A DNA stretch of 64,000 nt from Actinomycetota bacterium (GCA_034188985.1 JAXHVT010000023.1:62005-126004); one strand, 5' to 3'; positions 30,725-59,780 are shown, counted from the first letter of the stretch. The notes: a model not told the origin generated them from the sequence alone. Numbers and translations: made by a program.

Positions 30725-30769
30725 AAAACATCGGAAGATGGGGTCAGGCACTGACATCGGACATTTTCG
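30725..30769. repeat. Dispersed palindromic repeat family, copy A
   Basis: aaaacatcggaagatggggtcaggcactgacatcggacattttcg shares the GTCAGAAGACGGGGTCA...CATCGGACATTTTCG core with copies at 41.8, 50.3 and 59.7 kb. Confidence 0.5.
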
Positions 30770-30974
30770 TCCGAGCCCTCGTGACTGACCGGCAGCCCCC
30801 ACACGATAAGGCCTCGGTTATAAGCGATAGATCCATATGGGCAACCCGCCTCGGGGCGGGAGCGTTTGGGTCACTTCGTCGGCGCGGGCGCCTCCTCGCG
30901 ATGACGGTCACGTGATTTGAGACCCCATCCGGTGCTTTTCGGATAGAGTTATCCCCACTGGCACCGAGAATCGG

Positions 30975-31003
30975 TTGACTTTAATAGTTAACTATTATAT
31001 GTT
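30975..31003 (+). promoter_or_regulatory. Sigma70-like promoter TTGACT-15/16nt-TATATG with 10-bp palindrome TAGTTAACTA in the spacer
   Basis: AT-rich island in otherwise GC-rich DNA, immediately upstream of comF. The perfect palindrome at 30985-30994 is a candidate operator. Confidence 0.4.
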
Positions 31004-31028
31004 ATAGAACATGATTAACTATGGCAAT

Positions 31029-31733
31029 ATGGCGGAACTGTTCTTCCCCACGCGCTGCGCCGGCTGCGGAAGGTATTCCGGCAGGCCGCTTTGCCTGGAG
31101 TGCACCGCCTCGCTTCCCCTGATAAGAGGCCCGGTATGCAGCCTCTGCGGCAAGCCCACGCTCTATGACGTGGAGGACTGCCTCGAATGCCGGGGCAGGA
31201 TAAGATACCTGGATGCGACCGTGGCCCTGGCCGTCTACGAAGAGCCCTTGAGGTCGATGATCCACAAGTTGAAATATCGCAATGGGTGGAGGCTGGCGAT
31301 GCCCCTCGGGGCCATGGCCGCCGTGCGGCTGGCTCCAATGCTCGGCGGGGACGAGCCTGTCGTTACCTACGTGCCCATGTACCGCCGTAATCGCAAGGCA
31401 CGCGGCTACGATCATGCGGAGGAGCTGGCCCGAGGCGTGGCAAGGGCTCTAGGCTTGAAGGTTGAAACGCTCCTGGGCAGGACGCGCCCCTGCAAAGCCC
31501 AGAGCGGTCTGACCCATGAAGACAGGAGAGTGAACGTACTGGGGGCCTTCCAGGAGCGAGCCACGGCGGCACATGTGAGGGAGGCCGTGCTGGTGGACGA
31601 CGTACTGACCACCGGTTATACACTGCGCGAGTGCGCTGGTGCGTTGAAGAAAGCGGGAGTGGAAAGGGTGATCGCCTGCGTTCTGGCCAGGGATCTGCTG
31701 GGCGAACCCACCCGCCGTCATGGTACGGGATAA
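31029..31733 (+). CDS. comF: ComF-family phosphoribosyltransferase (competence protein ComFC-like)
   Basis: N-terminal Cys-rich zinc-finger-like CAGCG...CLEC...CSLCG, then a PRTase fold (VLVDDVLTTGYTL). Confidence 0.7.
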   Translation: MAELFFPTRCAGCGRYSGRPLCLECTASLPLIRGPVCSLCGKPTLYDVEDCLECRGRIRYLDATVALAVYEEPLRSMIHKLKYRNGWRLAMPLGAMAAVRLAPMLGGDEPVVTYVPMYRRNRKARGYDHAEELARGVARALGLKVETLLGRTRPCKAQSGLTHEDRRVNVLGAFQERATAAHVREAVLVDDVLTTGYTLRECAGALKKAGVERVIACVLARDLLGEPTRRHGTG

Positions 31734-31814
31734 ATTGCAGCGCCTTTTTTTCGCGTAAATAGAACCCCCCGGGATGACGATAAAAATCATAGAGCCTAAG
31801 GAGGCAAGTGAGGC

Positions 31815-32069
31815 ATGCGAATATCGGACAGAGAGATAGAGAACTCGCTGCGGTTTTTATCCCAGGAGCCCTTCGCATCGGGCGGAAAGCCGCACATTGC
31901 GCAGGATATAGAGCAGATGGTGCTGGGGCAGCTGAGGGAGATGCCGGATGTCCGGATGGACAGGGTGCTATCACTACGCACCGCCATCCAGGAGAAACGC
32001 TATTCGGTGTCCAGCGAGGACGTGGCCAAGAAGATACTTGGCCGCTGCGTTGCCGATCATATCCGTTGA
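31815..32069 (+). CDS. flgM: FlgM-family anti-sigma-28 factor (orphan)
   Basis: 84 aa. C-terminus RVLSLRTAIQEKRYSVSSEDVAKKIL resembles the FlgM sigma-28-binding helix. Strong SD (AAGGAGG). No flagellar genes in the window. Confidence 0.45.
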   Translation: MRISDREIENSLRFLSQEPFASGGKPHIAQDIEQMVLGQLREMPDVRMDRVLSLRTAIQEKRYSVSSEDVAKKILGRCVADHIR

Positions 32070-32138
32070 CGTGCAAGAGATGGTGCTCAGAAGAAAGGCG
32101 GCCCCTGCGGGGGCCGCCTTTGATATCGGTAGGGTCCG

Positions 32139-33330
32139 TAGCTGAATGGCCTCGATAAGGTTGGCTCCCTCCTGTACGCCGCCGCACAGGGTAGCCATAT
32201 CGTACCTGGCGCCTTTCTCCTTGAGGATGCGGGCCAGGGAGCAGGTGAGCATGGGCCCGGAACAGGCCAGGGGGTGGCCTATGGCGATAGTGCCCCCTTG
32301 ACGTTGACCTTCTCCGGGCCCAGTCCCAGCTCCCTGATGCCGTACAGGGTGATCACGGCGAAGGTCTCGTTTATCTCTCAGTACTCGATATCGCCAATAT
32401 CCATCGCAGCTTTCTACAGAGTCATCCTGGAGGCGGGGAACGGACCCACGCCCATTAAACCGGGATCGACGCCCGTCCATTCCATGGATACGACCCTCGC
32501 CAGGGGCTTGAGTCCCAGTGAATCGGCCTTGTTCTCGTTCATAAGGAGCACCGCGGTGGCCCCGGCGTTCAGGGATGAGGAGTTTCCGGCCGTTATCTGA
32601 CCATCGGGCTTGAAGGCCGGCTTGAGCTCGGCCAGCTTCTCCATGGTGGTGCTGGCGCGCATGGAGAGATCGGTGTCGAAGCGCTGCACGCTTCCGTCCT
32701 CCTGCTCCACCTCGACTGGAAGGATCTCGCCCGCGAAATAGCCCTCCTTTACCGCCCTTGCGGCTCTCTGGTGGCTGAACAGGGACCACTCGTCCATCTC
32801 CTCCCTGGTGATGCCAGACTGGCCATGGAGCTTCTCGGCGGTCAGCCCCATGCTCATAGCGGTCTGGAAATCGAGCTGCTTCAGGCTCTCGTCCTGGAAG
32901 AACCTGGGGTTTATAGCCATGAGGTCGGTGCTCCCCGGCGGATCCAGGGGAACGTGAGTCATGTGCTCCATGCCGCAGACCAGAACTAGGTCGGAACAAC
33001 CGAGAATTTTATCCATGGAACCCTGGTGGAGGGCGGACACCCCGGAGATACATACCCGGTCCATTCCCTGTGCCGGGGTGGTCACGGGCAGGCCGGCCAG
33101 GAAGGCAATGGTTCGACCGCCCATGAGGTAGTACGCATCTGCAGGGCGCAGCCCACCAGGAGGTCGTCGATATCCTCCGGGTTCACCTGGTTGCGGGACA
33201 GTATCTCCTTCACCAACAGAGACAGCGCATCGTCCATCCTCAACTTGTTGAAGGCGTCTCTCTCCGGTTGACGGGACCTGGATCTGGAGTAGGGGGCTCT
33301 GAGCATGTCCACGATAACCGCTTCGGTCAT
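32139..33330 (-). pseudogene. Acetyl-CoA acetyltransferase (thiolase) pseudogene with multiple lesions
   Basis: Thiolase homology is spread over three frames: N-terminus 33330-33130, middle 33124-32417, C-terminal fragments 32376-32139 (contains GHPLACSG). There is a frameshift near 33125-33135. In-frame TAG at 32414-32416 (GPFPASRMTL*KA). In-frame TGA at 32378-32380 (DIEY*EINETF). A frameshift sits in the C5 run at 32294-32298 (KGG/TIAIGHP). The native stop after ...IEAIQL is absent. Confidence 0.6.
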
Positions 33331-34219
33331 CTTTTCCTACTTTGGTTACGTTTCCCAGAATATATTAATCGTAGGTTAATACTATTGTGGTTCCGTATGT
33401 CTTAACGGAACTTAGGCCCGGGCATAGCATATATAGATGCCGTAATGGCTCTCGCGCGACCCAAGGCCCGCTTATGAGCCGAGAGGTTCCGGGATCCGAG
33501 ACCTTGCGGCTCTCCTTGAACGGTTGGGCTTGCCACCTGGGACCCGTTCGGATCATTCCAGCCTTATCCTGGGCATGAAGAGGGAGAGGGCGAAGGCCAG
33601 ACCAGCCACCACCACCGCCGTAAACACATGTGGCTTCAACAGGGTCGGTGCCGGCCCTTCAGACTCGGGCCGAAGAGACTTATAATAATGGTGGAAGGTT
33701 TCGGCCCGGGTCTGTGGTTGAAAGTCGATGCTAGCCGCAGGCGAAACGACCCACGTAAGCCAACTTTTTGTTGGTGAGCATGGTGCGGCTTAGGGGTAAG
33801 ACCTGCCCGGCTCAGATCCGGAGAAGCGCAATAGTGGCGGGCATTCCGGTAACCCTTGAAGGGCGGATTCCCGCTGCGAGCCGCTCAGCAGGCGAGTGTG
33901 GGGTCAAAGACCAGGTCAGCCGGGTTCGAAACCTTTTAATAAAAACGATGCTCCCCGCGGTTATACGCGGAGGCCTGGTGGGGGCCCCGCCGGAAGGGAA
34001 ACGACGGACGGGGACCCTGCGATGAGACGGCGTATCGAAAAGCGAGTGGGATTCGAGGGATTGTGTGGAGGCCCGGAAACGCGGGGTTCATATGGTGGTG
34101 GACTTTCTTGGCACAGGAATAAACCTGTGGTAGGCTTATGCGAGTCAAAAACGAGATAAACCGGGGCAGCCCCGGGTATTCGATGAGCTTATATAGCTTA
34201 TTTATAGGGATCGAGGTCG

Positions 34220-34254
34220 GCCCATACCGCACCTTGTAAGGGTATGGGCTTTTG
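34220..34254 (+). terminator. Intrinsic-terminator-like hairpin (9-bp stem GCCCATACC/GGTATGGGC, 12-nt loop) followed by TTTT
   Basis: Seen directly. It lies 26 nt upstream of the hpf start, at the end of a 0.9-kb ORF-free region. Confidence 0.4.
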
Positions 34255-34279
34255 CACGGAAGAGAAGGGAGCAAAGGTT

Positions 34280-34834: not shown

Positions 34835-34941
34835 TATGCGCAAGTTCCTGGACATGGTGCGGCAGGTGCTCGATTACGTGATACGACGCGGGGCCTCGAT
34901 GCGCCTTTGAGATCCCGTCGGAGAAGAGTAGAAAGGCAATC

Positions 34942-37931: not shown

Positions 37932-37938
37932 ATGCCTG

Positions 37939-40599: not shown

Positions 40600-40698
40600 T
40601 TATCATGGGAAGACGCCGCCGGTCTCCGGGGCTTACCGGAGGCGGCACAGCTGGATTGTGAGATCGGATAGGGACTTGGATAATGCGAGGTTGATAGG

Positions 40699-41803
40699 AT
40701 GCTTGGCGATCATGTAAGCGAACTGGAGGGGTTGGCCGGCAGGCTCGTGAAGATAAAGGAGTATCTTTGACATAGAAGGTAAAAGGAGCCGGGTGGCCGA
40801 GCTCGAGAAACAGAGCGCCAGGCCCGATCTCTGGGATGACCAGGAGAATGCCCGGCGCCTGTTGGGGGAGCTCTCCAATACCAAGGAACTGGTGGATAGC
40901 TGGGAGAGGCTATCGGGGGACAGCGGGGAGTTGGGCGAGTTGATCCAGTTGGCAAGGGAGGAGGATGACTCCAGCCTCAGCGAAGAGATAATCCAGGGCG
41001 TGGAAAGGCTGCGACGTGAGGTGAATCGGCTGGAGGAGGAGAGTCTCCTGGGCGGAGAGCTTGACTCCCACGACGCCATCGTCAGCATCCATCCTGGAGC
41101 GGGTGGGCTGGAATCCCAGGACTGGGCTGAGATCATGCTGCGGATGTACCTGCGTTGGGCGGAGTCGAGGGGGTTCAAGGTGGATCTCAACGACGTGCAG
41201 CCCGGGGATGGAGGCGGGATTAAGAGTGCCACCTTTACCATTCATGGCCACAACGCATACGGTCTTTTCATGTCTGAGAAAGGCGTTCACCGCCTGGTGC
41301 GCATCTCCCCCTTCGACGCCTCGCATCGCCGCCACACCTCCTTCGCCTCACTGGACGTGATCCCCATGCTGCAGGAGACGGGCGAGATCGAAATAGACCC
41401 CAAGGATCTCCGCGTGGAGACCTACAGGTCGAGCGGGGCCGGGGGGCAGCACGTTAACGTCACCGATTCGGCCGTGCGCATCACCCACGAACCCACGGGC
41501 ATTGTCGTTTCCTGCCAGAACGAGCGTTCTCAGATATCCAATCGTCAGACGGCCATGCGCATATTGGAGGCACGGCTGGCTGAGCGGGTGCGGCAGGAGC
41601 GGGAAAAGAGGATAGAGAAGCTGCGGGGCGAGAGGAAGGATATCGGCTTCGGGAGCCAGATACGCTCCTACGTACTCCATCCCTATCGCATGGCCAAGGA
41701 CCACCGAACCGATCTGGAGATAGGCAACGCGGACGCCGTGCTGGACGGCGACCTGGACGACCTCGTCGACTCCTACCTGCGCTGGAAGGCCACCCCCGAC
41801 TAA
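40699..41803 (+). CDS. prfB: Peptide chain release factor 2, programmed +1 frameshift at CTT TGA C (40765-40771)
   Basis: Frame 0 runs ATG 40699...AAGGAG TAT CTT TGA (40768-40770). The +1 frame continues GAC ATA GAA GGT... into the RF2 body. GGQ appears as SSGAGGQHVNVTDSAVRITH. ORF track only reports 40793-41803. Confidence 0.9.
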
Positions 41804-41817
41804 GATGAGGCCAGGCG

Positions 41818-41836
41818 CTTACATCGGACATTTTCA
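41818..41836. repeat. Dispersed repeat family, partial copy B1 (CTTACATCGGACATTTTC)
   Basis: Matches the 3' arm of copies A and D. Confidence 0.4.
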
Positions 41837-41925
41837 TATCGAAAGCGTGGGAAAACACCCGTCCTCGAGCCTGAGGGGCACCAAAGGACAGCGGCGCCAT
41901 CGCAACCGTTTTTACTCTGGACCTG

Positions 41926-41966
41926 CAAAATGTCAGATGTGAGTGACCCCGTCTTCTGAGGTTTTT
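41926..41966. repeat. Dispersed repeat family, copy B2 (inverted orientation)
   Basis: Its reverse complement, aaaaacctcagaagacggggtcactcacatctgacattttg, aligns with copy D. Confidence 0.5.
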
Positions 41967-42007
41967 GGGTGCAGGTGTTAGTATAATAGGCGCTTTGAAA
42001 GGAGAAG

Positions 42008-46273: not shown

Positions 46274-47551
46274 ATGAGAGAAAAAATGACCCGCCGCGAG
46301 AGGAATATCCTCATCCTGGTGGTCGCCCTGTCCCTGATAGTGGTGGCCTCCTGTTTCGCCTTGCCCTATATCCTGCGATCCAGGGATTCCTCCACCTCTT
46401 CGTCGGGCGAATCGGGCCCGGAATCCGAAAACCTCGTGGAGCTGCTTGAGGGCAGCGAGGCCTACCGCGACGCGCGGGACATCGTGGAGAGAAATTACGT
46501 GGAGGAGGTGGACGGCGACGATCTTCTCGAGGCGGCGGAGAAGGGCATGCGCAGGATGGCCGAGGAGGGCTACGACGATGAGGAGCTGGTGGAAAGGGGC
46601 ATCGTGGCCATGATAGATTCCCTGGAGGATCCCTTCTCGTCCTACATGGACGCCAGGCAGGTGGAGATGCTGGATACCCAGCTCGCCGGGCATTTCTCGG
46701 GTATCGGGGTGGCCATGCAATCGGTGAAGAACGAGATCCGTGTGGTGGAGGTGCTCAAGAATACTCCGGCCGAGGAGGTCGGCCTGCAGGAGGGAGATAT
46801 CATCAGGGAGGTTGACGGTGCCGACGTGACGGATATGGCGCTGGACGAAGTGGTGATGCTTATCAGGGGCCCCGAGGGTACGACCGTGAACCTGGGGATC
46901 TTGAGGGCACCCTCCTCCAGCCTCGAGTATTACGATATCGTCAGGCGGGAGATAGAGCTGCCGGTCATAGAATACGAGATGAAGGAGGGAGACATAGGGT
47001 ACCTCAGGCTGACGGACTGGACCGAGGACGTTGATGCAAAGCTCACGGAGGTATTGAGGGAACTCAAGTCCCAGGGGGCCAAGGGCCTGGTGCTGGACCT
47101 GCGGGGAAACACGGGGGGCTATATGGATCCGGCCATCCGGGCGGCGGACCTCTTTCTGCACGGCGGCGTGATAGTGACCAGCAAAGGCCGCATCGGGGGC
47201 GCGTCCAACGAGTACGAGGTGGACGACGCGGTGGAGTGGGACCTGCCCGTCGTGCTCCTGGTGAACCGGGGCTCGGCCAGCTCGTCTGAGATCTTCTCCG
47301 CCGCCCTGCGCGATAACGACCGCTGCCTCCTGGTGGGCGAGACCACTTTCGGCAAAGGCTCTATCCAGAAGTTATACCGGCAGGATGACGGGACCGCACT
47401 GAAGCTGACCATCGCCCTCTACTACACTCCCTCGGGGATCAACATCACCGACGAGGGCATAGAGCCGGACGTGTTCGTCAAGAACCCAGTGGTGGGGGAT
47501 GAGGATCTGCAACTGCGGGAAGCCCTCGAGTTGGTCTCAACAGAGATTTGA
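46274..47551 (+). CDS. ctpA: Carboxyl-terminal processing protease (S41) with PDZ domain
   Basis: PDZ (GDIIREVDGADV), catalytic Ser context LVNRGSASSSEIFSAAL, and the Lys region. Confidence 0.85.
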   Translation: MREKMTRRERNILILVVALSLIVVASCFALPYILRSRDSSTSSSGESGPESENLVELLEGSEAYRDARDIVERNYVEEVDGDDLLEAAEKGMRRMAEEGYDDEELVERGIVAMIDSLEDPFSSYMDARQVEMLDTQLAGHFSGIGVAMQSVKNEIRVVEVLKNTPAEEVGLQEGDIIREVDGADVTDMALDEVVMLIRGPEGTTVNLGILRAPSSSLEYYDIVRREIELPVIEYEMKEGDIGYLRLTDWTEDVDAKLTEVLRELKSQGAKGLVLDLRGNTGGYMDPAIRAADLFLHGGVIVTSKGRIGGASNEYEVDDAVEWDLPVVLLVNRGSASSSEIFSAALRDNDRCLLVGETTFGKGSIQKLYRQDDGTALKLTIALYYTPSGINITDEGIEPDVFVKNPVVGDEDLQLREALELVSTEI

Positions 47552-47555
47552 TCGC

Positions 47556-47768
47556 TCAGTTGGAGGGCGGGGATTCCACGGCTACATTCAGTATAAACTG
47601 GAACTCCGTCAGCTCCCTTTCCCTTACCGAGCCCCTCTGTTCCGCCACCTGGAAGAAATGCACCTTGTCATCCGATGCGACATTTCCTCCGCCGCGCCCC
47701 TCACCGCCTCGGAATAACCTATGGGCGATGTGTCGGATACCTCCCTGAATACGAGCATTTTCACCCTC
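47556..47768 (-). pseudogene. Dodecin-family flavin-binding protein, disrupted by a 1-nt frameshift
   Basis: Minus-strand ATG at 47768 with SD GGAGGGTG. Frame 1 gives MLVFREVSDTSPIGYSEAVRGAAEEMSHRM, then stops. The +1 frame continues DKVHFFQVAEQRGSVRERELTEFQFILNVAVESPPSN*. Junction at ATGAC, inferred ancestral ATGGAC, near 47655. Confidence 0.5.
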
Positions 47769-48289
47769 CTTTTCTTCTCCCTGTTCGGATACTCACCCGC
47801 GAAGGCGGTGAAAAGGTTGCCGTCGCGAGTGAGCGCCGTTGAGGACCGGCCGCTCGAAGAGCCGGTCTACGATATTGTTCCCTCTTGATCGCGATGAAAA
47901 CCAGTTGGCCCATCCACCGCGAATACGGGCATGCCGGTGCTGGTGATGCAGCGCCCCTGCGAAGAGCTGGTTGAAATCCAGGCGTCATGTAAGGGGCGAA
48001 AGAGGGGTTAGCAGACGGTCGGGATTATCGTATTCGAACTGCAATAGGATAGAATTGCCGTAAGACTTGACGCGGTGAGCATGAACGAGATAGCCTTACG
48101 GCTTATGGCGCGCAGGACCCCGTGGCAGCCCGAGTAGCGATGGAACGTCGCGGGGGTGCGCCGTCCGTTGAAATCCTCGTGGGCGGCGGGGGTCCGTCGG
48201 GCTGGAGAGAAGTTCCGGGGCGACTCGAGGACGTTGGGGTAGAGAGAGCGGAACGCAATCAGGAGGTAATGGGGTTGACCGGAGGCTGC

Positions 48290-50281
48290 ATGGGAGAGGT
48301 ACTGGTGGTGAACCTGTCCGATTGCGACAGCGAGAAGCAGGAGGTACCCGAGGATGTTTACCGGGATTTCATAGGGGGCTATGGGCTGGGCGCATGGTAT
48401 ATATATCGTGGCCAGCCCAAGGGAGTTGATCCCATGGGCGATAAGGCCGTCCTGGGTTTCCTCCCCGGACTTCTGGGGGGTACCTCCGTGCCCTTCAGCG
48501 GCAGGTTCATGATAGCGGGCAAGTCCCCCCTTACGGGTGGATGGGGCGACTCGAACGGCGGAGGTCATCTCTCCCCCGCCATAAAGGCCGCGGGATACGA
48601 CGGGATATTTGTCACGGGCGTTTCGCCGGATCCCGTGTATGTAGTGATCAGAGGAAAAAAAGTAGAGATAAAGAGCGCCTCCCATCTCTGGGGAAAGGAT
48701 ACGGTGGAGACGGAGGAGATAATCCGGAGAGAGACCGGAGACCCCAGGCTGCGCGTGGCCTGCATAGGACCGGCGGGTGAGAAGAGGTCGCTACTGTCGG
48801 GGGTGGTTACTGAGGGAGGAAAGAGCGCCTCCGGCTCGGGGCTTGGGGCGGTGATGGGCTCCAAGGGACTCAAGGCCCTGGCGGTAAGCGGCAGACGGGA
48901 GACGCCCCTGGCTCGGGCCTTGGAGCTCGGAGAGCTCAACCGCCATTACCTGGACGGTTACGGCCGTTCCTCGTATCTGGGTCGAGCGGCTGCCAGGAGG
49001 ATAAGGATTCTCAGCAGCCTGCCGCGTTTCGTGCCCTCCAGGCTGTGGCGCAAAGCGCCGGTTCTAAAGGAGCTGTTACGGGCTTACGGCACGGCCGCCT
49101 GGACGACCGCCGCGGTGGGTCTGGGCGACTGCCCGGTAGGGAATTTCGCCGGCGGAGGCTTTGTCGATTTTCCCTTCAATGGCAGGGCGGGGGCCGTAAG
49201 CGGATGGGAGCTCGAGCGTTACCGCGTCAGGAGATACCACTGCCACGATTGCCCCCTGGGCTGCGGTGGCATATACGTTCTGGAGGAGGGTCCTTACGCG
49301 GTGGAGCAGTCCCTTGGGCCAGGATACCGGGCACTGGCCGCCTTGGGGCCCGACTGCATGTGCTCCGACCTCAAGGCTATCTTGTACATGAACGACCTGC
49401 TCAACCGGGCGTGTATGGACGTTGAGGCCGCCGGGGTGGTCCTGTCCTTTGCCATGGAATGTTTCGAGAAGGGCGTTATATCCACTGCGGATACCGGGGG
49501 CCTCGAGCTGACCTGGGGAAACAGCCGGGCCATGGTCGAGATGGCAAGGAAGATGATCAGGAGGGAGGGGCTGGGAGAGATCCTGGCGGATGGAGTCGAC
49601 AGAGCGGCCCTGAGCCTGGGAAAGGGATGCGAGGAATGGGCCATGAGCGCCGGCGGCAATGAGCTGGCCATGCACGACCCCCGACGCGACCCCGCGGTGG
49701 GCCTGTCCTACGTCGTGGAGCCCGTGCCCGGACGTGTCGGTATATATGGCGCTCCACGTGCCGAAGTACAGGAGCTGGAATTCGATATGGAGGAGGCCGG
49801 CGGGCTTGCCCCGGAGTTCACCGGGGGGGGCGGAGGTGAACGGGAGGGGTCGGGTAGAGCGCTCGCTTTACGTAATCACTGGTCGCGGCTGCTGGACTGC
49901 TCAGGGCTCTGCCGCCTCGGAGCGGCCACCAGCGAGCTTCCGCTGGTGGAGTGGTTGAACGCCGTGACGGGCTGGGATCGTGATTTCGCCTTCTATCTGG
50001 AGGCGGGGGAGAGGATAGACGCCATCAGGCAGTGTTTCAATGCTAGGGAGGGCATAAGGCCGGAGAATATCGGCCTGCCAAACCGGGCCAGGGGAGTACC
50101 GCCCCTGGAAAAGGGACCCCTGGCGGGCGTGACCATCGATATCGAGTCCTCGCTGCATGCTTATCACGAGGCCATAGAATACGATCCAGAAAAAGGTTGG
50201 CCAAGCGAGAGGAAGCTGCGCCGGCTGGGCATGGTCTGGTGCCTGCCGGGCAAAGGCCAGAGGATGCAGTTCTTCCGCTAG
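48290..50281 (+). CDS. Aldehyde:ferredoxin oxidoreductase (tungsten-type AOR family)
   Basis: MGEVLVVNLSD...KSPLTGGWGDSNGGGHLSPAIKAAGYDGIFVTG... aligns with AOR N-terminal and catalytic domains. In-frame TTG 48275 or ATG 48269 are alternative starts. Confidence 0.85.
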   Translation: MGEVLVVNLSDCDSEKQEVPEDVYRDFIGGYGLGAWYIYRGQPKGVDPMGDKAVLGFLPGLLGGTSVPFSGRFMIAGKSPLTGGWGDSNGGGHLSPAIKAAGYDGIFVTGVSPDPVYVVIRGKKVEIKSASHLWGKDTVETEEIIRRETGDPRLRVACIGPAGEKRSLLSGVVTEGGKSASGSGLGAVMGSKGLKALAVSGRRETPLARALELGELNRHYLDGYGRSSYLGRAAARRIRILSSLPRFVPSRLWRKAPVLKELLRAYGTAAWTTAAVGLGDCPVGNFAGGGFVDFPFNGRAGAVSGWELERYRVRRYHCHDCPLGCGGIYVLEEGPYAVEQSLGPGYRALAALGPDCMCSDLKAILYMNDLLNRACMDVEAAGVVLSFAMECFEKGVISTADTGGLELTWGNSRAMVEMARKMIRREGLGEILADGVDRAALSLGKGCEEWAMSAGGNELAMHDPRRDPAVGLSYVVEPVPGRVGIYGAPRAEVQELEFDMEEAGGLAPEFTGGGGGEREGSGRALALRNHWSRLLDCSGLCRLGAATSELPLVEWLNAVTGWDRDFAFYLEAGERIDAIRQCFNAREGIRPENIGLPNRARGVPPLEKGPLAGVTIDIESSLHAYHEAIEYDPEKGWPSERKLRRLGMVWCLPGKGQRMQFFR

Positions 50282-50295
50282 CGAACGATATCACC

Positions 50296-50430
50296 AAGAA
50301 TGTCAGAAGACGCGGTCAGCCCCGAAAATCTGACATTTTCGTGAATCGGGAAGTGAATGATCCAGACGATATCGCTCTCTTGCGATAAGCCTCAGGCATG
50401 TATCCAGGCCTGATCCCGGTGCCTAAGGCA
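50296..50430. repeat. Dispersed repeat family, copy C (long form)
   Basis: aagaatgtcagaagacgcggtcagccccgaaaatctgacattttcgtgaatcgggaagtgaatgatccagacgatatcgctctcttgcgataagcctcaggcatg... aligns over ~130 nt with copy D. Confidence 0.5.
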
Positions 50431-50562
50431 TGGCGCGAACGCTGAGGTTGTTCGCGGCAATCCATGATTCCCGTGATAAAGCATGAATATGGCCATAGCT
50501 CAACCCCGCTAGTTTGGCAATTTGTGGGTGATAATTTAAGATAAAAGATGCGACCCCACAAA

Positions 50563-51812
50563 TATTTCACATCGGGTTGCATCAGTAAGCGGGGACTATT
50601 GAAAGGGCATTCACCGGGCAGATCGAAACACATACACCGCAACGTTCGCAGAGTTCGAGCTCTATTTCCGGCTTGTCCCGGTTCACGGTAACCGCTCCGT
50701 AGATACAGGCGGAGCATTTACCGCAACCGTCGCACTTGTCCTAGCTCAAAACCAGGCGAAGGGTATCGGGCTCGGCGGCTGAGGCCATGAAACGGGAGAG
50801 GAACTCATCGAGGTTATATATTTGGGGCAAGGCGAGTCCGATCATATCCGGAACCCGCTCGTAGCCTTTTCTATTTATGAAGCGCCCGACGCCTACGATC
50901 GTATCCGTAAGAGCCTTGTAGCCCTTGTATTGGACCGCGCTCTCGAGGGCGGCCACAGTCGCCCCGAACATCAGGCGTTCGACGGCGTCCTTCCAGGTCC
51001 AGATGCCACGCTGCTGATGATGTGCAACTCGGTTCCATTGGCCGAGAGGTAGGCGACGTAATTTCCGAGACCTCTCAACCAGCGTCCGTAGCCGAAAGGG
51101 ACGTTGATGGGAGGGCTAGCCGTCTGCATATCCAGAGAAGTGATCCGGAAATCGCTGTAGACGTGTAGCGCTCCCGCGCCCCGGTCCCACATCTCGGCGA
51201 TATAGCGGTTCCAGTATACGTCGTGGTTAAACCCGAGTTTCAACCGGAAGGGAATCCCGAGGTGACCGTCGAGCGCCTCTAACGCCAGAGGAACGGCACT
51301 CTCGAGGAAGGTGGCGGTGTCACTGGGGGACAGGGACATGCCGCAGGTCCCTCGATGGCATCCGAGCCGGCTTCCTCGAGCTGCGTTATCATCACCCTCA
51401 GGGCTACCTCCGCTGGCGGCGATATCTCCTCGCAGGGGGACAGGCCGCTCCAGGGGTTGACCATGAATACGCCTCCTACGATCCGCGCGTCCTCACTCTC
51501 GGCCGGATCCTTGGAAGCGCTTACGCATTCGACGGCTTTCTCCAGGGGCAGAAGCCCCGAGTAATAGTTCATGAGAGTGCAGCGGTCGCCTATACCATAG
51601 TAAAACCAGTTGTCCGGACGGGGCGGAAGCTGCGCCAGTGGATCCAGACAGACGTGTTTTAGAACCAGCGCGCCTACGCCGGCTTCGATACAGCACTTGA
51701 TGGTATACGGTGCCGAGGCGATGGGACCCGCCGCATCTGCTATCGAATTCTTGAAACGCATCCCCGAGAACTCGACTTCCATTTCAGGCATTGTGTCGTA
51801 GCTCCACTTCAC
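50563..51812 (-). pseudogene. PreA/dihydroorotate-dehydrogenase-like flavoprotein with C-terminal 2x[4Fe-4S] ferredoxin domain, fragmented
   Basis: Four consecutive minus-strand pieces. 51812-51279 is a DHOD-like TIM-barrel N-terminus (VEFSGMRFKNSIADAAGPIA...). 51339-50974 and 50971-50744 are in other frames. The ferredoxin segment DKCDGCGKCSAC...CERCGVCVSICP (50738-50563) follows an in-frame TAG at 50741-50743. The pieces sum to ~420 aa, typical for PreA. Confidence 0.45.
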
Positions 51813-52026
51813 TTGCCTTACATCCCGGTGCTATCCCCCTTCAGGCTGGGGGTTGACGGCGGCCAGGAGCGTCTCAATACGGGATTTGTAACAAGCCCAC
51901 GATTCGTCCCCGGATCTAATCCGTGTCATCTTATTGTTCATGAACGCGGTCAGCCCGTCGAATGACGAGTATCCGTCAATATAATGACAATGTGTTCGAT
52001 ATTCGACAGGCTGACCCAATAAAAAA

Positions 52027-52374
52027 TGGTGGAGGCGGGGGGAGTCGAACCCCCGTCCAGAAACCCGGCCCAGTGGGCTCTACGAGTGTATTCGCCGGTT
52101 ACATTCGCCCCCGGGAAGCCCGGCGAAAGGCTGACCCGGTGACTATCCCGTTAAGGATGTCCCTAAGCCCTTACGGGAGTCGGGCTTCGGTGATCCCGCT
52201 AAACGACGCCCCTTCCCCGGTCGCGGGCCTCCCGGAGAGGAACGGGTCGCGTTATTACGCGGCCAGAGCTAACTCGCTGTCAGCATCTATTGGTTTTCCC
52301 GATTCTTAACGGGGTTCGGGGCCCCGGCTCGCTCCCGCTCGAACCGCCGATCCCTGTCGAAGCCGTTTCGCCCC
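52027..52374 (-). ncRNA. ssrA: tmRNA (SsrA)
   Basis: Minus strand reads 5'-GGGGGCGAAACGGCUUCGACAGGG...GGACGGGGGUUCGACUCCCCCCGCCUCCACCA-3'. Acceptor stem has a G3:U70 pair. Tag ORF GCT GAC AGC GAG TTA GCT CTG GCC GCG TAA TAA encodes ADSELALAA. Lies downstream of smpB. Confidence 0.85.
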
Positions 52375-52497
52375 CACGTTTTCAATGTCCAATGGATAAT
52401 CGATATCCTACCAATATTTTAGCACCTGAAGTCCGAGGCTGTATCGCACACGACCATGGCGGGCACGATCGCCGGGCATACCCCGGCGCTAAGTTCT

Positions 52498-52974
52498 CTA
52501 CCTTTCCCGGCCCTTCTTACTGCCAGTTTTCAAGGTTCTCTCCATGTCCCGCCGGGCCTCCCTTTCCATGATGTCGCGCCGGCGGTCGGCCTTCAGTTTT
52601 CCTTTGGCCAGCCCGAGTTCAACCTTTATCTTTCCCCGGTCGGTCGTGTACAGGCTGAGCGGGATCAGGGTATACCCCTTCTCGGCCACCTTGCCCTCCA
52701 GGCGGCGTATCTCATGTTTGTGCATGAGAAGCTTCTTGTCCCTCAAGGGCTGGTGGTCGAAGGCGCCGCCGTGGCTGTAGGGGGCGACGTGCATATTCTC
52801 CAGGAACAGCTCTCCGCCCTTGATCCTGGCGAAACTGTCCCTGAGATTGGCCCTGCCCTCACGGATGGACTTGACCTCGGAACCCAGCAGGGACAGGCCC
52901 GCCTCGAATTTTTCCTCTATATGGTAGTCATGCCTGGCCTTGCGATTCTCGGCCAGCGTTTTCAACCTGCTCAT
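52498..52974 (-). CDS. smpB: SsrA-binding protein
   Basis: MSRLKTLAENRKARHDYHIEEKFEAGLSLLGSEVKS... Start moved to the ATG at 52974 with a GGAGG SD; the ORF track starts at an upstream TTG. Confidence 0.9.
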   Translation of the reverse strand: MSRLKTLAENRKARHDYHIEEKFEAGLSLLGSEVKSIREGRANLRDSFARIKGGELFLENMHVAPYSHGGAFDHQPLRDKKLLMHKHEIRRLEGKVAEKGYTLIPLSLYTTDRGKIKVELGLAKGKLKADRRRDIMEREARRDMERTLKTGSKKGRER

Positions 52975-53858: not shown

Positions 53859-54228
53859 TGTCCGCTTTTCTCCTCTCATTCAACCAGAGTTCTCGATGAC
53901 GCGGGACTTAAAAGGCCGCCGCCCACCCCCCTTCCGCAAACGCGGGGATACGACCTCCCACCGGGTGGCATATCCCGCATTATAGTCCCTGGACGGCGGT
54001 ATGCGCCAAGACATCATCTCATGCTGGAAAGGGCGGGGGTACGCGGGTGAGGCGGGCGAACCGCCGGAGGCGCTTGAATCTCGACCCGAGAGGCTTATGC
54101 GTACCGCGGCTCGATCCCCGATGAGGCCTTCAGATCGCGCTCCCGGGGACGCGCGGGAAGGAAGGCTATATGTCCGCGATATGTCCGCGGGGCGGTTGAT
54201 CCAGGGCGGTATAGGGGGTAGGCCGGGC

Positions 54229-55848: not shown

Positions 55849-56267
55849 CGCGTTACCTCCCTCTTGGCCGCTTCCTCGCGTAGGGCTTCTACCTCGAACC
55901 CCAGATATATCTGTACGTCGTCACGGTTGTAGTGGGACATGTAGATGGGGGTACCCAGAAGCATCGGTATAGCACTTACGGTGGCGAAACGGCTGGAGAA
56001 AAGGGACTGGATAAAATCCTCCGCCTCCTCTTGCGGCAATGCGTACAGGGACTTCCCGCGCAAGAGCAGGCAGAGCCCCTGCAGGATCAGGATGAGAAAG
56101 AAGTAGAGCAAACGGTAAGCGGGCGTCCCATTTGTAAAGAACTCCTCTCCGAACTCATGTAGTTCGCGCGGGTCCGGCTGTGGCATTCCCGGCTGTGGAG
56201 AGATAAAATAGGGCGCGAGCGCGTTCATTCTCTGCAGGCAATAGCTCTTCATTCCTTCCACCTTCAT
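55845..56267 (-). CDS. Small subunit associated with GMC oxidoreductase (gluconate 2-dehydrogenase subunit 3-like)
   Basis: 140 aa, directly upstream with a 4-nt overlap. One hydrophobic segment. Confidence 0.45.
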   Translation of the reverse strand: MKVEGMKSYCLQRMNALAPYFISPQPGMPQPDPRELHEFGEEFFTNGTPAYRLLYFFLILILQGLCLLLRGKSLYALPQEEAEDFIQSLFSSRFATVSAIPMLLGTPIYMSHYNRDDVQIYLGFEVEALREEAAKREVTR

Positions 56268-56513
56268 GTATAATCCCGGTTATCCAGGTCAAACCTCTTT
56301 CTCCACTGAACATTCTAGCTGTTCCCTGTATAAGGGGTCAATGAAGCATCGCCGCTCAGCCCAGGCGCGTGGCGGGATTGCCGGGCCCCCGCGCTGTGCT
56401 ACAATTTATTGAAATCCGGATGCGGGAAAAGGGCAATGCCGCGCCCGGCGCGAACATGTGATATCCTCCTTGGAAGTGCTAATCGATACAATGGTCTGGG
56501 AGGGCGACAGGTT

Positions 56514-57332
56514 TTGAACGAGTCCCCGATAGGAGTATTCGATTCGGGCGTCGGCGGCCTCACGGTCGTAAAAGCCATGATGAGCAGGCTGCCGCGGGAA
56601 TCTATCTGTTATTTCGGAGATAACCAACGCGGTCCTTACGGCCCCAGGAACCTGGGGGAGATACGGGATTTCGCTCATGAGATCGCCGCTTTCCTGGAGA
56701 GCATGGGAGTCAAACTCATCGTCATCGCCTGCAACTCCGCCACCTCGGCCGGCTTGCTGGACGTGCAGCGCGAATGCCGGGTGCCGGTGTTGGGCGTAGT
56801 CGAGCCCGGGGCCAGAGGAGCCGTGCAGGCCACTGTAAACCGCTGTATCGGGGTTATAGGAACCACGGCCACCATCAAAAGCCGAGCCTACCAGAGGGGG
56901 ATACGCGTCCTGGACGCCGGGGCGCATGTACATTCCCGCGCCTGCCCCACCCTGGTGGAATTCGTGGAGAGAGGTGAGGTGAACGGTCCCGGTATAGAGG
57001 GGGAGATAAGGCAATACGTCAGGCCGCTCGTAAGGCGTGGCGTGGATACCCTCGTCCTGGGTTGTACCCATTACCCCCTCCTACGCGAGGTAATCGGCGA
57101 GGTGATGGGAGAGGACGTGCGCCTGATCAGCTCTGACGAGGAGGTGGCCAGGGAGGTAGAGGAGAACCTGGTGCGGCGTGGCTACCTGAGGGAATCGAAG
57201 TCACCGCCGGCGCACCGCTTCCTGTGCTCGGGCAGCGTGGAGCAGGCCATAAGCCTCGGCCGCATGTTTCTGGGGCCGGAGGTGGAGAGGGTTGAGAAGG
57301 TGGATCTGTCGTTGCAAGGGGTGAGATTATGA
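56514..57332 (+). CDS. murI: Glutamate racemase
   Basis: IGVFDSGVGGLTV...VIACNSAT...LGCTHYP motifs. TTG 56514 with a GGGAGGG SD is the likely start; the ORF track starts at 56409. Confidence 0.8.
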   Translation: MNESPIGVFDSGVGGLTVVKAMMSRLPRESICYFGDNQRGPYGPRNLGEIRDFAHEIAAFLESMGVKLIVIACNSATSAGLLDVQRECRVPVLGVVEPGARGAVQATVNRCIGVIGTTATIKSRAYQRGIRVLDAGAHVHSRACPTLVEFVERGEVNGPGIEGEIRQYVRPLVRRGVDTLVLGCTHYPLLREVIGEVMGEDVRLISSDEEVAREVEENLVRRGYLRESKSPPAHRFLCSGSVEQAISLGRMFLGPEVERVEKVDLSLQGVRL

Positions 57333-58105
57333 GGTTGGTGATACTGGGTTCCTCCGGGACCTATCCGCGACCCGGCGGTGCATGCAACGGCTTCCTCATC
57401 CAGGAAGGGGAAACGAACCTGATACTGGATTTGGGTAACGGGTGCCTCTCCAATTTCCTCCTGGAAGCGGACCTTACTTCGTTGGACGTGGTGGCTGTAT
57501 CCCATATGCATATAGATCATTTCGGCGATCTCTACCCCCTCTATTACGGCCTGCGTTTTCACCCTGACAAGCCTTGGGGGATGCGCCTGCTCATACCGGA
57601 GAGAGGACTGGATATCATGGGCCGTCTTCTGAGCGAGGACGCGAGAGCCTATCTTACGAGGATATACGAGGCGGAAACGGTGGCGGCCGGAAGGGAATAC
57701 ACGGTGGGAGATATGAAGCTGACATTCCACCCCACGCGACATCCCGTGGAGAGCTATGGTATAAGAGTGGAGGGGGAGGACTGGGTGCTGGCATATTCCT
57801 CGGATACCTCTCCCTGCGCGGGGCTGGATGAAGCGGCCAGGGGGGCGGACGTGTTCATATGCGAGGCGACGATGTCCCCGGAGAACGCCGACAAGGCGGA
57901 GGAGTACGGCCATATGACCGCGGCCCAGGCCGGGGAAGCGGCGGAAAGAGCGGGGGTGGGCCTTCTCATGCTCACCCATGTATGGCCTACCCGGGATCCG
58001 GCGGACGCGGTGAGGGAGGCCGGGAAGGCTTATTCGGGAAGGGTCCTGTACGAGCCGGAGGGCTGGTCGATGCATTGGGGAGGTGACTCTGATGCCCAGG
58101 AATGA
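57329..58105 (+). CDS. MBL-fold metallo-hydrolase
   Basis: HMHIDH motif. ATGA overlap with the murI stop. Confidence 0.7.
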   Translation: MRLVILGSSGTYPRPGGACNGFLIQEGETNLILDLGNGCLSNFLLEADLTSLDVVAVSHMHIDHFGDLYPLYYGLRFHPDKPWGMRLLIPERGLDIMGRLLSEDARAYLTRIYEAETVAAGREYTVGDMKLTFHPTRHPVESYGIRVEGEDWVLAYSSDTSPCAGLDEAARGADVFICEATMSPENADKAEEYGHMTAAQAGEAAERAGVGLLMLTHVWPTRDPADAVREAGKAYSGRVLYEPEGWSMHWGGDSDAQE

Positions 58106-58838
58106 AGGAAGAAAGGCGCGGGATATGCGGCCTATGAAGATCGTGCGCAACTGCATGATGTATGCGGAGGGATCCGCCCGGGTGGAGATGGGCAATACCA
58201 TCGTGATATGCACCGCCAGCTTGGAATATCGCGTACCCCAGTTCCTGAGGGGCACTGGGAAAGGATGGGTGACGGCGGAATACTCCATGCTTCCCCGCTC
58301 CACCCAGGAGAGAATCAACAGGGAGTCCTCGATCGGAAGGCAAGGGGGCAGAACCCTGGAGATACAGAGGCTTATAGGCCGATCCCTGAGGGCGGTAACC
58401 GATCTGGAGGCACTGGATGAATATACCCTTTGGATCGACTGCGACGTTATCCAGGCCGATGGGGGCACCAGGACGGCGGCGATAAACGGCGCCTACGTCG
58501 CTCTGCACGACGCCTTTCGGGGCATGGTCGAGAACAGGAAGTTGAAGGAGCTTCCCCTCTCCGATTTCGTAGCGGCCGTGAGCGTGGGCATGGTCGACGA
58601 ACGGCCTCTCCTGGACCTCGATTTCGAGGAGGATTCACGGGCGGACGTGGACATGAACGTGGTCATGACCGGCGACGAAAGGCTGATAGAGATACAGGGA
58701 ACAGCGGAGAAAAAGGCCTTTACCCGTGGGGAGCTCGACGAGATGCTGCAGCTAGCCCAGGAGGGCATCCAGAAAATGATTGATCTGCAGAAGCGGGTTT
58801 TGATGTCCGAGAACGGGATCGCCGCTTCGGGGGATTGA
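58092..58838 (+). CDS. rph: Ribonuclease PH
   Basis: ...RNCMMYAEGSARVEMGNTIVICTAS...DCDVIQADGGTRTAAINGA... is the RNase PH signature. ATG 58092 follows a GGAGG SD. Confidence 0.9.
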   Translation: MPRNEGRKARDMRPMKIVRNCMMYAEGSARVEMGNTIVICTASLEYRVPQFLRGTGKGWVTAEYSMLPRSTQERINRESSIGRQGGRTLEIQRLIGRSLRAVTDLEALDEYTLWIDCDVIQADGGTRTAAINGAYVALHDAFRGMVENRKLKELPLSDFVAAVSVGMVDERPLLDLDFEEDSRADVDMNVVMTGDERLIEIQGTAEKKAFTRGELDEMLQLAQEGIQKMIDLQKRVLMSENGIAASGD

Positions 58839-59464
58839 AAGTGATCCGTAAACGGCTGGTTTTAGCCACCCGCAACGCCGGAAAGATAAAGGAATTGCGG
58901 GACCTTCTGAGGGATATGCCCGTCGATATCCTTACCCACCGTGATCTCGATGGATGGCCCGATATGGAGGAAACAGGCGATACCTTCGAGGAGAATGCGG
59001 CCATCAAGGCCGAGACCATGGCGGCGTGGAGCGGCTTTCCAGCCCTGGCGGACGACTCGGGGCTGGAGGTGGAGGCGCTGGGAGGCGCCCCGGGGGTTAT
59101 AAGTGCTCGCTATAGCGGGAGCGAGGGGGGTGATGCCGCGAATATCGCCCACCTGCTGTGGGAACTGGAGGGGATACCGCAGGGAAAGAGGGGTGCCCGT
59201 TTCGCCTGCGTGCTCACCCTGGCGTATCCCCCCGAAGCCTCCCTGGAGGTCAGGGACATATGCGAGGGGGATATTATGCAGGAGCCAAGGGGTGAGGGCG
59301 GTTTCGGTTACGACCCCGTATTCCTGCCGAGGGGCATGAGCCGCACCATGGCCGAGCTCACCCGTGAGGAGAAGAACGCCATCAGCCACCGCGGGAAGGC
59401 GCTGCGCCGCCTGCGCGCGCTACTGGAGGCGGGCCAGCCCGCATGGTTCTGGGAAAAAGGCTGA
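58835..59464 (+). CDS. rdgB: dITP/XTP pyrophosphatase (RdgB/Ham1)
   Basis: LVLATRNAGKIKEL...FGYDPVF...EKNAISHRGKA motifs. Classic rph-rdgB pair. Confidence 0.85.
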   Translation: MKVIRKRLVLATRNAGKIKELRDLLRDMPVDILTHRDLDGWPDMEETGDTFEENAAIKAETMAAWSGFPALADDSGLEVEALGGAPGVISARYSGSEGGDAANIAHLLWELEGIPQGKRGARFACVLTLAYPPEASLEVRDICEGDIMQEPRGEGGFGYDPVFLPRGMSRTMAELTREEKNAISHRGKALRRLRALLEAGQPAWFWEKG

Positions 59465-59489
59465 AGGCCTGGGCCCTCAGCCTTAGCTT

Positions 59490-59565
59490 TGGAGCGGGAG
59501 ACGGGATTCGAACCCGCGACACCGAGCTTGGAAGGCTCGTACTCTACCAACTGAGCTACTCCCGC
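59490..59565 (-). tRNA. tRNA-Gly(TCC)
   Basis: Reverse complement GCGGGAGUAGCUCAGUUGGUAGAGUACGAGCCUUCCAAGCUCGGUGUCGCGGGUUCGAAUCCCGUCUCCCGCUCCA folds as a cloverleaf. Anticodon loop CUUCCAA. Confidence 0.85.
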
Positions 59566-59656
59566 ATGATGACAGACCATATTTTATCATAGCAGCACCC
59601 GATGTCCGATGCCGGTGAACGAACCCATCCCCGTGGATCATGAGCGCCCAGAACCC

Positions 59657-59780
59657 AAAACGTCAGAAGACGGGGTCACTAACATCGGACGTTTTCGGGG
59701 ACTGGAACATGAATGGCCTCAACCGTATCGCTATCCTGCGATGAGCTCCAGGCATCAGGCCGTGGCTGACCCCGGTGCAT
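59657..59780. repeat. Dispersed repeat family, copy D (long form) between tRNA-Gly and tRNA-Pro
   Basis: aaaacgtcagaagacggggtcactaacatcggacgttttcgg has terminal inverted arms AAAACGTC/GACGTTTT. It is followed by ~80 nt alignable with copy C. Confidence 0.5.

Follow-up and report, generated by a model that had tools for sequence, protein, structure and literature searches.

A dispersed repeat family in an actinobacterial genome segment resembles the units of TIRYT-type mobile elements

Background

What are the short, related sequences dispersed over a 64-kb window (the whole stretch of DNA analysed) of an actinobacterial genome, several of them close behind genes? A sequence-only reading had presented them as a novel and strictly intergenic family of palindromic repeats, resembling either REP/MITE-like elements or small structured RNAs and terminators. 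Here, the units are defined, a related family with its transposase is described, and the alternative explanations are weighed.

Repeat units in the window

The repeat family is real. The unit, ~50 nt in length, can be written as ACCCAAAAYGTCAGAAGACGGGGTCA-N3/N7-ACATCKGACATTTTCG, and the 64-kb window has five clear copies, together with two or three weak remnants. A combined, strict degenerate pattern matches the window five times and none of 100 shuffles, the left core with up to 3 mismatches is present four times against 0.19 expected, and a profile made from the copies gives exactly five strong matches. Copies are present where the sequence-only reading had located them. Two blocks are recognisable in the unit, AAGAY-GGGGTCAS (outer) and ACATCKGACA-TTTT (inner), and the copies are 69-88% alike. 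A GGGGWSAS motif marks the outer end, as GGGGTCAG in unit A and as GGGGTCAC in units B′ and D, and is imperfect in C (GCGGTCAG, one mismatch) and B (GAGGCCAG, two mismatches). The window has seven GGGGTCAS octamers, four of which are inside the elements.

Unit A (30717..30772, + strand; profile match 30722-30770, E 2e-15) is a singleton, with GGGGTCAG at 30740, positioned 6-10 nt past the stop codon of a NTP_transferase (manC-like) gene and upstream of a ComF-like gene. Unit B (41789..41837, + strand; profile match from 41790, E 4e-12) is degenerate, with GAGGCCAG replacing GGGGTCAG, and opens an inverted doublet. A copy had been noted here at 41818-41836; it is present, but as a full degenerate unit with its start at ~41789. 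Unit B overlaps the end of the RF2 (prfB) coding sequence, its final codons and TAA stop included, and the family is therefore not strictly intergenic. The inverted second arm, B′ (41925..41970, - strand; profile match 41925-41968), is ~90 nt from B, ~40 nt upstream of a PHP-domain gene, and 88% complementary to D. Unit C (50294..50343, + strand), with terminal arms AATGTCAGA/TCTGACATT, is located 13 nt past the stop codon of an aldehyde:ferredoxin oxidoreductase gene. Unit D (59652..59700, + strand; profile match 59654-59698), the best-preserved copy, with terminal arms AAAACGTC/GACGTTTT, lies between divergent tRNA-Gly and tRNA-Pro genes. This location, and that of B′ upstream of the PHP gene, contradict the description of all copies as downstream of genes.

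The suggestion that C and D have a further ~90 nt in common is borne out by local alignment (z = 12 versus shuffles). The C extension (50344..50436, + strand) and its homologue, the D extension (59701..59780, + strand), are ~70% identical. CTGATCCCGG, which closes the C extension at its 3′-end, is possibly a degenerate inverted second unit, and an inverted GGGGTCAG in the D extension (59766-59773, - strand) may be the outer end of another; C and D are probably doublets in which the second arm has decayed. Homology to this extension was also considered for the spacer between B and B′ and for the sequence flanking A, and rejected, with alignment scores at shuffle level, and the ORF-poor stretch beside C (50.5-51.85 kb) was rejected as a decayed transposase gene, having neither a Pfam nor a TIRYT-profile match. 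The inverted GGGGTCAG had not been recorded previously, nor had two possible remnants. Remnant E (59598..59635, - strand) is 79% identical to A over 28 nt, with a weak profile match (nhmmer, E 4.4). The other (51941..51970, + strand) contains ACGCGGTCAGCCC, 13 nt that match unit C exactly, and is also weak (blastn-short E 0.18, profile E 34). In extragenic DNA, the family is dispersed as a single unit (A), an inverted dimer (B/B′) and a cluster with alternating orientation (E, D and the inverted GGGGTCAG).

A related family and its transposase

A pattern derived from the window, with an information content of about 43 bits, was scanned against metagenomes and returned a single family, with 5 distinct sites in 10 loci; as a rough estimate, about one chance match at most would be expected for such a pattern in such a database. 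As this family (designated L003 after one locus) was retrieved by a window-derived pattern, the link is not an independent test. Its unit, AAGAYGGGGTCAAACCTACACATCTGACA, is identical to window units A and C at 21-22 of 29 nt (about 75%; manual count). On the left, the window units extend by a further arm, AAAAYGTCAG, with no counterpart in the L003 family, and their five-unit alignment has no conserved GTAG or CTAC; the L003 family has CCTACAC. The AAGAYGGGGTCAAACCTACACATCTGACA units are perfectly conserved and are always present as inverted pairs, 20-90 nt apart and directly past stop codons, the same arrangement as B/B′ has in the window. The spacers within these doublets are mutually unrelated.

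At L003, a 34-nt perfect inverted repeat (3809-3842 / 4875-4908) surrounds a 315-aa ORF that matches Y1_Tnp (PF01797, E 1e-12) and, weakly and below the gathering score, Bac_DnaA_C (PF08299, E 4e-5). The ORF scores 74.5 bits on the NCBIfam model REP_Tyr_transpos, for which the cut-off is 80 bits, and the JGI annotation is RayT; it is an IS200-like Y1 transposase with a DnaA-like C-terminus. According to Di Nocera et al. 2013 (PMC3733652), the terminal inverted repeats (TIRs) on either side of TIRYT genes have a common GGGGWSAS motif, and 'moderately abundant' TIR families are organised as dimers or clusters. TIRYT corresponds to TnpA_Y1 subclass 2.1, with a Bac_DnaA_C/HTH (Quentin et al. 2018, PMC6006769). 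In the related L003 family, the transposase has the Y1 core with such a C-terminus that characterises this subclass.

More than 7,800 relatives of this transposase were scored, many with PF08299. Four homologues, chosen by protein similarity only (45-49% identity), have related inverted repeats (GGGGTC... or GTGTCA...) on both sides of the gene (GGGGTCGCGTCTACAC...; GGGGTCAGGTCTACATT..TTGACAAA; GGGGTCAAACCTAC...; GTGTCAGGTCTACACATTGACAA), so that inverted units surround a Y1 transposase gene in the L003/L012 family and in these four; often, the 3′-repeat overlaps the stop codon of the flanked gene. The window units and the homologue repeats have in common an outer GGGGTCA(G/C) and an inner (T/G)GACA followed by a W-run. 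The two blocks are 12 nt apart in B and C, as in L003 and L037; in unit A the distance is 12 nt to the terminal GGACA when read by eye and 5 nt, to an earlier TGACA, in the scripted count. Built into a profile, the four TIRs that were found independently gave no significant match to the window units (best E 6.8) and, as single-TIR queries, L037, L039 and L042 also had none; the L003 repeat alone matches. The likeness to these independent TIRs is limited to short motifs.

No Y1/TIRYT gene was detected in the 64-kb window by tblastn or by a profile search of six-frame ORFs, and the pattern GAAGAYGSGGTCAN{3,7}AMATCKGAC identified no family copy in the GTDB representatives. Two GTDB matches, in coding-like DNA and with the flanks missing, and 21 viral-contig matches to CAGAAGACGGGGTCA, all without the right half of the unit, were dismissed as chance matches. 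A TIRYT protein pattern identified one locus in the viral contigs, L042, where the upstream sequence, AGGGTCAGGCCTGAC..TTGAC, bears a loose likeness to unit A. The claim of novelty holds for this particular sequence family, absent from the GTDB species representatives, but not for the kind of element, which was described in 2013 and 2018.

The repeats are probably REP/TIR-type units of non-autonomous elements, of the kind that flank TIRYT-class, RAYT-like Y1 (HUH) transposases. The earlier comparison with REP/MITE-like elements is upheld by the singletons and inverted doublets, by the GGGGWSAS motif, and by the nearest relative, whose units flank a RAYT/TIRYT Y1 gene. TIRYT-class enzymes are thought to move such units in trans. 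If the biochemistry of IS200/IS605 and RAYT is taken as a model, a single-copy TIRYT encoded elsewhere in the genome would recognise the units on single-stranded DNA, where two inverted units, or the short arms of one, would fold back. The enzyme would cut beside the outer block, possibly at AAGAY|GGGG, and the element would be re-ligated into new sites, preferably gene 3′-ends, without target-site duplication. With an identity of only 69-88% to each other, the copies in the window are probably old and mostly inactive.

Insertion sites

The prfB-PHP spacer was compared with the orthologous spacer in syntenic host relatives (Actinomycetota, Geothermincolia-like). Two relatives, L035 and L041, have other GGGGTC doublets at this site and a third, L040, has none; L035 has an additional GGGGTC doublet elsewhere, where its CtpB gene ends, and the profile of independent TIRs gives weak matches (E 0.27 and 1.5) to the L041 doublet. 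These differences among relatives point to insertion and turnover of the repeat rather than a conserved cis-element. Neither the window doublet nor the L003-L012 doublets are flanked by target-site duplications or other direct repeats, as expected for Y1 transposition.

The same observations bear on the possibility that the repeats are MITEs of a DDE-type insertion sequence or transposon, with the units serving as terminal inverted repeats cut on double-stranded DNA. B/B′ has inverted termini that enclose a short stretch of non-coding DNA, the unrelated spacers of the metagenome doublets have parallels in some MITE-like captures, and the outer ends start with GGGG, as do the inverted repeats of the Tn3 family, which is therefore a candidate. 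Tn3-type inverted repeats are, however, ~38 bp long with an inner TAAG, and the window units have neither this length nor this tetranucleotide. Direct repeats are lacking, the sole type of gene between such termini is a Y1/HUH transposase (5 of 5 loci), and a singleton such as A and the tail-to-tail arrangement of E and D are typical of REP/BIME rather than of MITEs. A DDE-type origin is, on this evidence, very improbable.

Folding and promoter overlap

Terminal arms able to form a hairpin had been ascribed to each copy. Only two copies have good arms, D with 8 bp (fold z -3.2) and C with 9 bp (fold z -2.6); those of B′ are broken, A and B have none, and A, B, B′ and E fold no better than shuffles. 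The B/B′ doublet folds into one long imperfect hairpin and, at the level of the consensus, 76% of cells pair versus 26-46% with the partner slid. That the repeats evolved as structured RNAs, as small RNAs, 3′-end stabilisers or terminators, gains from the folding of C and D, from the few base pairs that these two sequences, and only two, keep through double changes, and from the several copies close behind stop codons. Against this, no Rfam covariance model matches any copy at the gathering score or at E <= 5, no copy has a terminator-like site (a GC-rich hairpin with a T-run), and covariation in the five-unit alignment is at shuffle level. Relative to the genes beside them, the units point either way, and some are upstream of a gene; the same site in relatives holds different sequences or nothing. 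The proposal of structured small RNAs or terminators is not supported, and an RNA origin is very unlikely. It is plausible that hairpins at mRNA 3′-ends are a secondary effect of the units.

Both tRNA genes beside unit D have a promoter-like site with its -35 hexamer inside a repeat unit. For tRNA-Pro, the hexamer is CTGACC (59766-59771), in the inverted GGGGTCAG of the D extension and, for tRNA-Gly, CGGACA (59608-59603), in remnant E. Both sites have a TGn extended -10, and the scan gives two such sites versus 0.2 expected. Outward-facing TGAC(A/C) hexamers plausibly serve as -35 elements for these two genes. For the -10 box that precedes the PHP gene, B′ was rejected as the -35 element; it offers no acceptable hexamer.

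From this placement, and from the likeness of the inner block, TCTGACA, to TTGACA, the whole family might be taken for operator or promoter modules: sites where a nucleoid protein or a regulator would bind, or portable -35 elements retained for the control of transcription. Only two of ~7 units are so placed, however, A, B and C are behind genes with no matching -10 downstream, and the inverted doublets and the link to a transposase-flanking family are left unexplained. Such modules are a highly improbable origin, and the -35 overlap is more readily understood as a by-product of insertion.

The TIRYT-type reading can be extended. The host of the AAGAYGGGGTCAAACCTACACATCTGACA family would be a diderm bacterium from freshwater-sediment-type metagenomes, and the ~75% identity over 29 nt between its unit and the window unit, about as close as the window copies are to each other, would imply a cross-phylum transfer of transposase and repeat. 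It is, nevertheless, unlikely that a TIRYT repeat population with such a transfer, the co-option of units as two tRNA -35 elements, and AAGAY as a cleavage or target site all hold together.

The window adds a repeat family in Actinomycetota to a known kind of element, rather than a new category. In the literature searched, TIRYT-type systems have few mentions, without biochemistry, yet the scored transposase relatives number over 7,800. Related genomes have doublets of different sequence at one intergenic site, and AAGAY|GGGGTCAS...KGACA is a concrete unit for cleavage and binding assays. For annotation, five puzzling intergenic blocks are explained, with the warning that repeat sequence makes up part of the RF2 gene 3′-end and of two predicted tRNA promoter-like sites.

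Comparison with known systems

IS200/IS605 elements and their miniature derivatives (PATEs) resemble the proposed system in Y1 HUH catalysis on single-stranded DNA and in insertion at short targets without duplication, but their ends are two unlike subterminal hairpins, not identical inverted repeats, and their transposases are ~150 aa and multi-copy. The CGTC-tagged REPs (PMC3733652) are matched by unit D (AAAACGTC...GACGTTTT), whereas the other window copies have CATC, CCTC or TGTC.

The REP/REPIN-RAYT systems of Pseudomonas and Enterobacteria (Bertels & Rainey 2011, PMC3116915; Nunvar 2010, PMC2817692) have in common with the window family and its relatives short extragenic repeats near gene 3′-ends, inverted doublets that can fold into a long hairpin, a HUH Y1 transposase that is single-copy and flanked by repeats, and no target duplications. 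In contrast, the window units have no GTAG tetranucleotide and are not, singly, strong palindromes, the related transposase is just under the RAYT cut-off (74.5 versus 80 bits) and has an extra C-terminal HTH, and the related doublets lack a conserved spacer. The REPIN layout, two inverted units with a short spacer that form a hairpin, fits B/B′; C and D have at best a decayed second arm and A has none. A high copy number, tens to hundreds per genome, is a further feature of REP/REPIN systems; the window has five clear copies in 64 kb.

The closest counterparts are the TIR repeat families of TIRYT genes, or 'TIRtrons' (Di Nocera et al. 2013, PMC3733652), together with TnpA_Y1 subclass 2.1 (Quentin et al. 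2018, PMC6006769). The available text names Acidobacteria and Proteobacteria as hosts, whereas the window is from an uncultured Geothermincolia-like actinobacterium, has no cognate gene within its 64 kb, and has units with an extra left arm, by which some are self-complementary. Common to both are the outer GGGGWSAS, units of 25-50 nt, a moderate abundance and an occurrence as single units, dimers and clusters, and, in the nearest family and four other examples, the repeats enclose the gene of a ~315-aa Y1 transposase that has a DnaA_C-like HTH.

Repeat units in the window

The repeat is real. Direct reading of the window located the sequences reported by the sequence-only reading in all four regions in which it placed them, and its count of at least five copies in 64 kb stands. 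The left core GTCAGAAGACGGGGTCA has four window matches at ≤3 mismatches (0.19 expected) and the right core has five (1.7 expected), with five matches also to the combined degenerate pattern AAGAYGNGGYCAN{3,7}AMATCKGACRTTTT versus none in 100 shuffles. A search with a profile made from the copies returned five strong units, A (30722-30770, +), B (41790-41837, +), its inverted partner B' (41925-41968, -), C (50294-50343, +) and D (59654-59698, +), with the rest of the window at noise level. As aligned, these consist of ACCCAAAAYGTCAGAAGACGGGGTCA and ACATCKGACATTTTCG with 3 or 7 variable bases between them, and the unit extends slightly beyond the ~45 nt originally described. E (~59598-59635, -) is a weak remnant, with a profile E-value of 4.4, as are an inverted GGGGTCAG at 59766-59773 and, perhaps, 51941-51970. 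C and D do have in common ~90 additional bases beyond the units (z = 12 versus shuffles), and the inverted GGGGTCAG lies within this extension of D. Neither the spacer between B and B' nor the sequence flanking A, both considered as relatives of the extension, is similar to it. The copies are 69-88% identical among themselves, and this divergence suggests that they are old.

The copies were thought to be strictly intergenic and downstream of genes. Unit B, full-length and degenerate, covers the last codons and TAA stop of the RF2 gene, so the family is not strictly intergenic, and D and E lie between the divergent tRNA-Gly and tRNA-Pro genes, upstream of both. A small GC hairpin, AAGACGGGGGCAAAGACCCCG (30681-30703), which resembles the outer block AAGACGGGGTCA, is located 20 nt before unit A at the extreme end of an NTP_transferase ORF.

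Folding and RNA readings

Terminal inverted arms had been ascribed to every copy. They are present in D (8 bp, fold z -3.2) and C (9 bp, fold z -2.6), interrupted in B' and absent from A, B and E. With all five units aligned, pairing covers 76% of cells, versus 26-46% with the partner slid, with no excess of covariation over shuffles. As the arms are convincing only in C and D and covariation is at the shuffle level, the palindromic character is a property of the consensus and not evidence for a selected RNA fold. The suggestion that the copies are terminators or structured RNAs fares no better in other respects, as none of the copies has an Rfam match, whether at gathering score or at E ≤ 5, or carries a hairpin-plus-T-run site.

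Neighboring features and putative promoters

A promoter scan of the tRNA spacer identified two sites (0.2 expected), both with a TGn extended -10 and a -35 hexamer within repeat sequence. For tRNA-Pro (59766-59793, +) the -35 is CTGACC (59766-59771) in the extension of D, with TATAAT at 59788-59793, and for tRNA-Gly (59581-59608, -) it is CGGACA (59608-59603) in E, with TAAAAT at 59586-59581. The C/D similarity ends immediately before the tRNA-Pro -10, a textbook arrangement for a hybrid promoter. We hypothesize that both sites may be hybrid promoters made by the elements.

Within 47551-52522, a CtpB-like gene and tmRNA/SmpB are separated by an aldehyde:ferredoxin oxidoreductase gene (48122-50281), which is followed by ~1.4 kb of fragmented minus-strand ORFs (50.5-51.85 kb) without Pfam matches. 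The oxidoreductase gene is absent between CtpB and SmpB in three syntenic relatives (L035, L040 and L041), and the segment in the window may have been inserted or be decaying, with unit C at its junction. A raiA RNA (Rfam RF03072, 169.9 bits) is encoded at 33701-33928 (+), upstream of ORFs, where syntenic relatives hold a ribosome hibernation factor gene (Ribosomal_S30AE). The CTTTGAC motif at which RF2 classically undergoes programmed +1 frameshifting is located at 40765-40771, immediately upstream of the long RF2 ORF (40793-41803). Several imperfect repeats in apparent coding sequence at 24767-25788 (period ~153-156 nt, 60-88% identity) probably encode a repeat-domain protein. Diverged duplicated segments (70-72% identity; 21261-21650 versus 23545-23934, and 21995-22089 versus 29554-29648) take in two NTP_transferase (manC-like) gene starts, which indicates paralogous sugar-nucleotide genes in a polysaccharide cluster.

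Doublets at the prfB-PHP site of relatives

The SecA of the window matches an NCBI protein from a MAG labelled Actinomycetota at 100% identity, has its next relatives at 77-82% identity, Candidatus Solincola among them, and has a 74% match labelled Candidatus Geothermincolales. We compared the prfB-PHP spacer with those of the three syntenic relatives. Where the window has B/B', L035 has a different doublet, GGGGGTCGGCGCCTTCAGCTTTCACATGATC ... GATCGTGTGAACGCGAAGGCCTGACCCC, L041 has a third, GGGGTCAAGTCTTGATCTTTT / GGGGTCAGGTCTTGATTTTTA, that again overlaps the RF2 stop, and L040 has none. L035 has an additional GGGGTCAGGTCTTCGATTT doublet, which overlaps CtpB at the 3' end. Of these GGGGTC-type inverted doublets in Geothermincolia-like relatives (L035 9373-9463 and 15196-15266; L041 14112-14225), two share the prfB-PHP site with B/B' and two run into the final codons of the gene that precedes them (RF2, CtpB). 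Since the relatives' spacers hold different doublets or none, the pattern, at the level of sequence comparison, fits repeated insertion and turnover of such doublets in the lineage rather than a conserved cis-regulatory element.

A related family flanks a Y1 transposase

The repeat family was not found in GTDB species representatives, where two pattern matches inside coding-like DNA were dismissed as chance, or in viral contigs, and the 64-kb window contains no Y1 transposase, whole or decayed. A metagenome scan found ten loci, representing five distinct sites and a single family, with perfectly conserved units, AAGAY-GGGGTCAAACCTACACATCTGACA-WWWW, that usually start at or inside a stop codon and always have an inverted partner 20-90 nt distant. 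Over a 29-nt core these units match A and C at 21-22 positions, a similarity no lower than that among the window copies themselves, a comparison that is not an independent test of the link as the family was retrieved with the window-derived pattern. For this ~43-bit pattern we roughly estimate at most ~1 chance match in such a database, nor would a chance match be expected to be a doublet family flanking a transposase.

One pair, ~1 kb apart, is a perfect 34-nt inverted repeat around a 315-aa ORF that matches Y1_Tnp (E 1e-12) and, weakly, Bac_DnaA_C, scores 74.5 bits on NCBIfam REP_Tyr_transpos, slightly below the cut-off of 80, and is annotated by JGI as RayT. The adjoining gene encodes a TonB-dependent-receptor-like outer-membrane protein, so this host is not an actinobacterium. 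The diderm host of the metagenome family (Ga0315273-289) and L036, a relative of the window's host (JGI 3300032069, Ga0315282), have neighboring JGI sample numbers, and may come from the same habitat.

Unit anatomy and doublets are observed in the sequence, and the transposase-flanking arrangement in related families; no target duplications are present at the doublet flanks examined (window and metagenome family). By analogy with IS200/IS605 and RAYT biochemistry (background in PMC3479197 and PMC6006769), the non-autonomous elements would be mobilized by a Y1 HUH enzyme whose gene would lie outside the window. Acting at the replication fork, where DNA is single-stranded, it would recognize the folded-back inverted units and cut beside the outer block, with AAGAY, conserved directly 5' of GGGG, as the candidate cut site.

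Probable relationship to the TIRYT class

Among >7,800 scored transposase homologues, four chosen purely by protein identity all have inverted repeats on both sides, the 3' repeat often running over the stop codon: GGGGTCGCGTCTACACTTTGCACTTTT (L034), GGGGTCAGGTCTACATT.TTGACAAA (L037), GGGGTCAAACCTACTTTTT (L038) and GTGTCAGGTCTACACATTGACAA (L039). In L037, from a Desulfobacterales MAG, the complete gene has a second, partial Y1 transposase match 3 kb away (4293-4514; residues 71-141, tblastn E 2e-12), which is likely a gene remnant. The 315-aa transposase and these four homologues belong to the published TIRYT/TIRtron class. In published descriptions of it, long terminal inverted repeats (TIRs) with a common GGGGWSAS flank RAYT-like genes, with moderately abundant families arranged as dimers or clusters (Di Nocera et al. 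2013, PMC3733652), and TIRYT is TnpA_Y1 subclass 2.1, with Bac_DnaA_C or HTH C-termini (Quentin et al. 2018, PMC6006769).

Neither single-TIR queries (L037, L039 and the viral-contig locus L042) nor a profile combining the four independent TIRs significantly matched the window units. At the end where the class has GGGGWSAS, the window units bear GGGGTCAG or GGGGTCAC; the window has seven such octamers, four of which fall inside elements. In the L003 (315-aa ORF) and L037 repeats, GGGGTCA is 12 nt from the inner (T/G)GACA block, as in B and C, and as in A if counted to the terminal GGACA (the scripted count is 5, at an earlier TGACA). The REP/MITE-like interpretation originally offered is supported, with a TIRYT/RAYT-type TIR/REP family being the best, and a likely, explanation of the window repeat. 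This is a known kind of element, to which the window repeat would add a new family.
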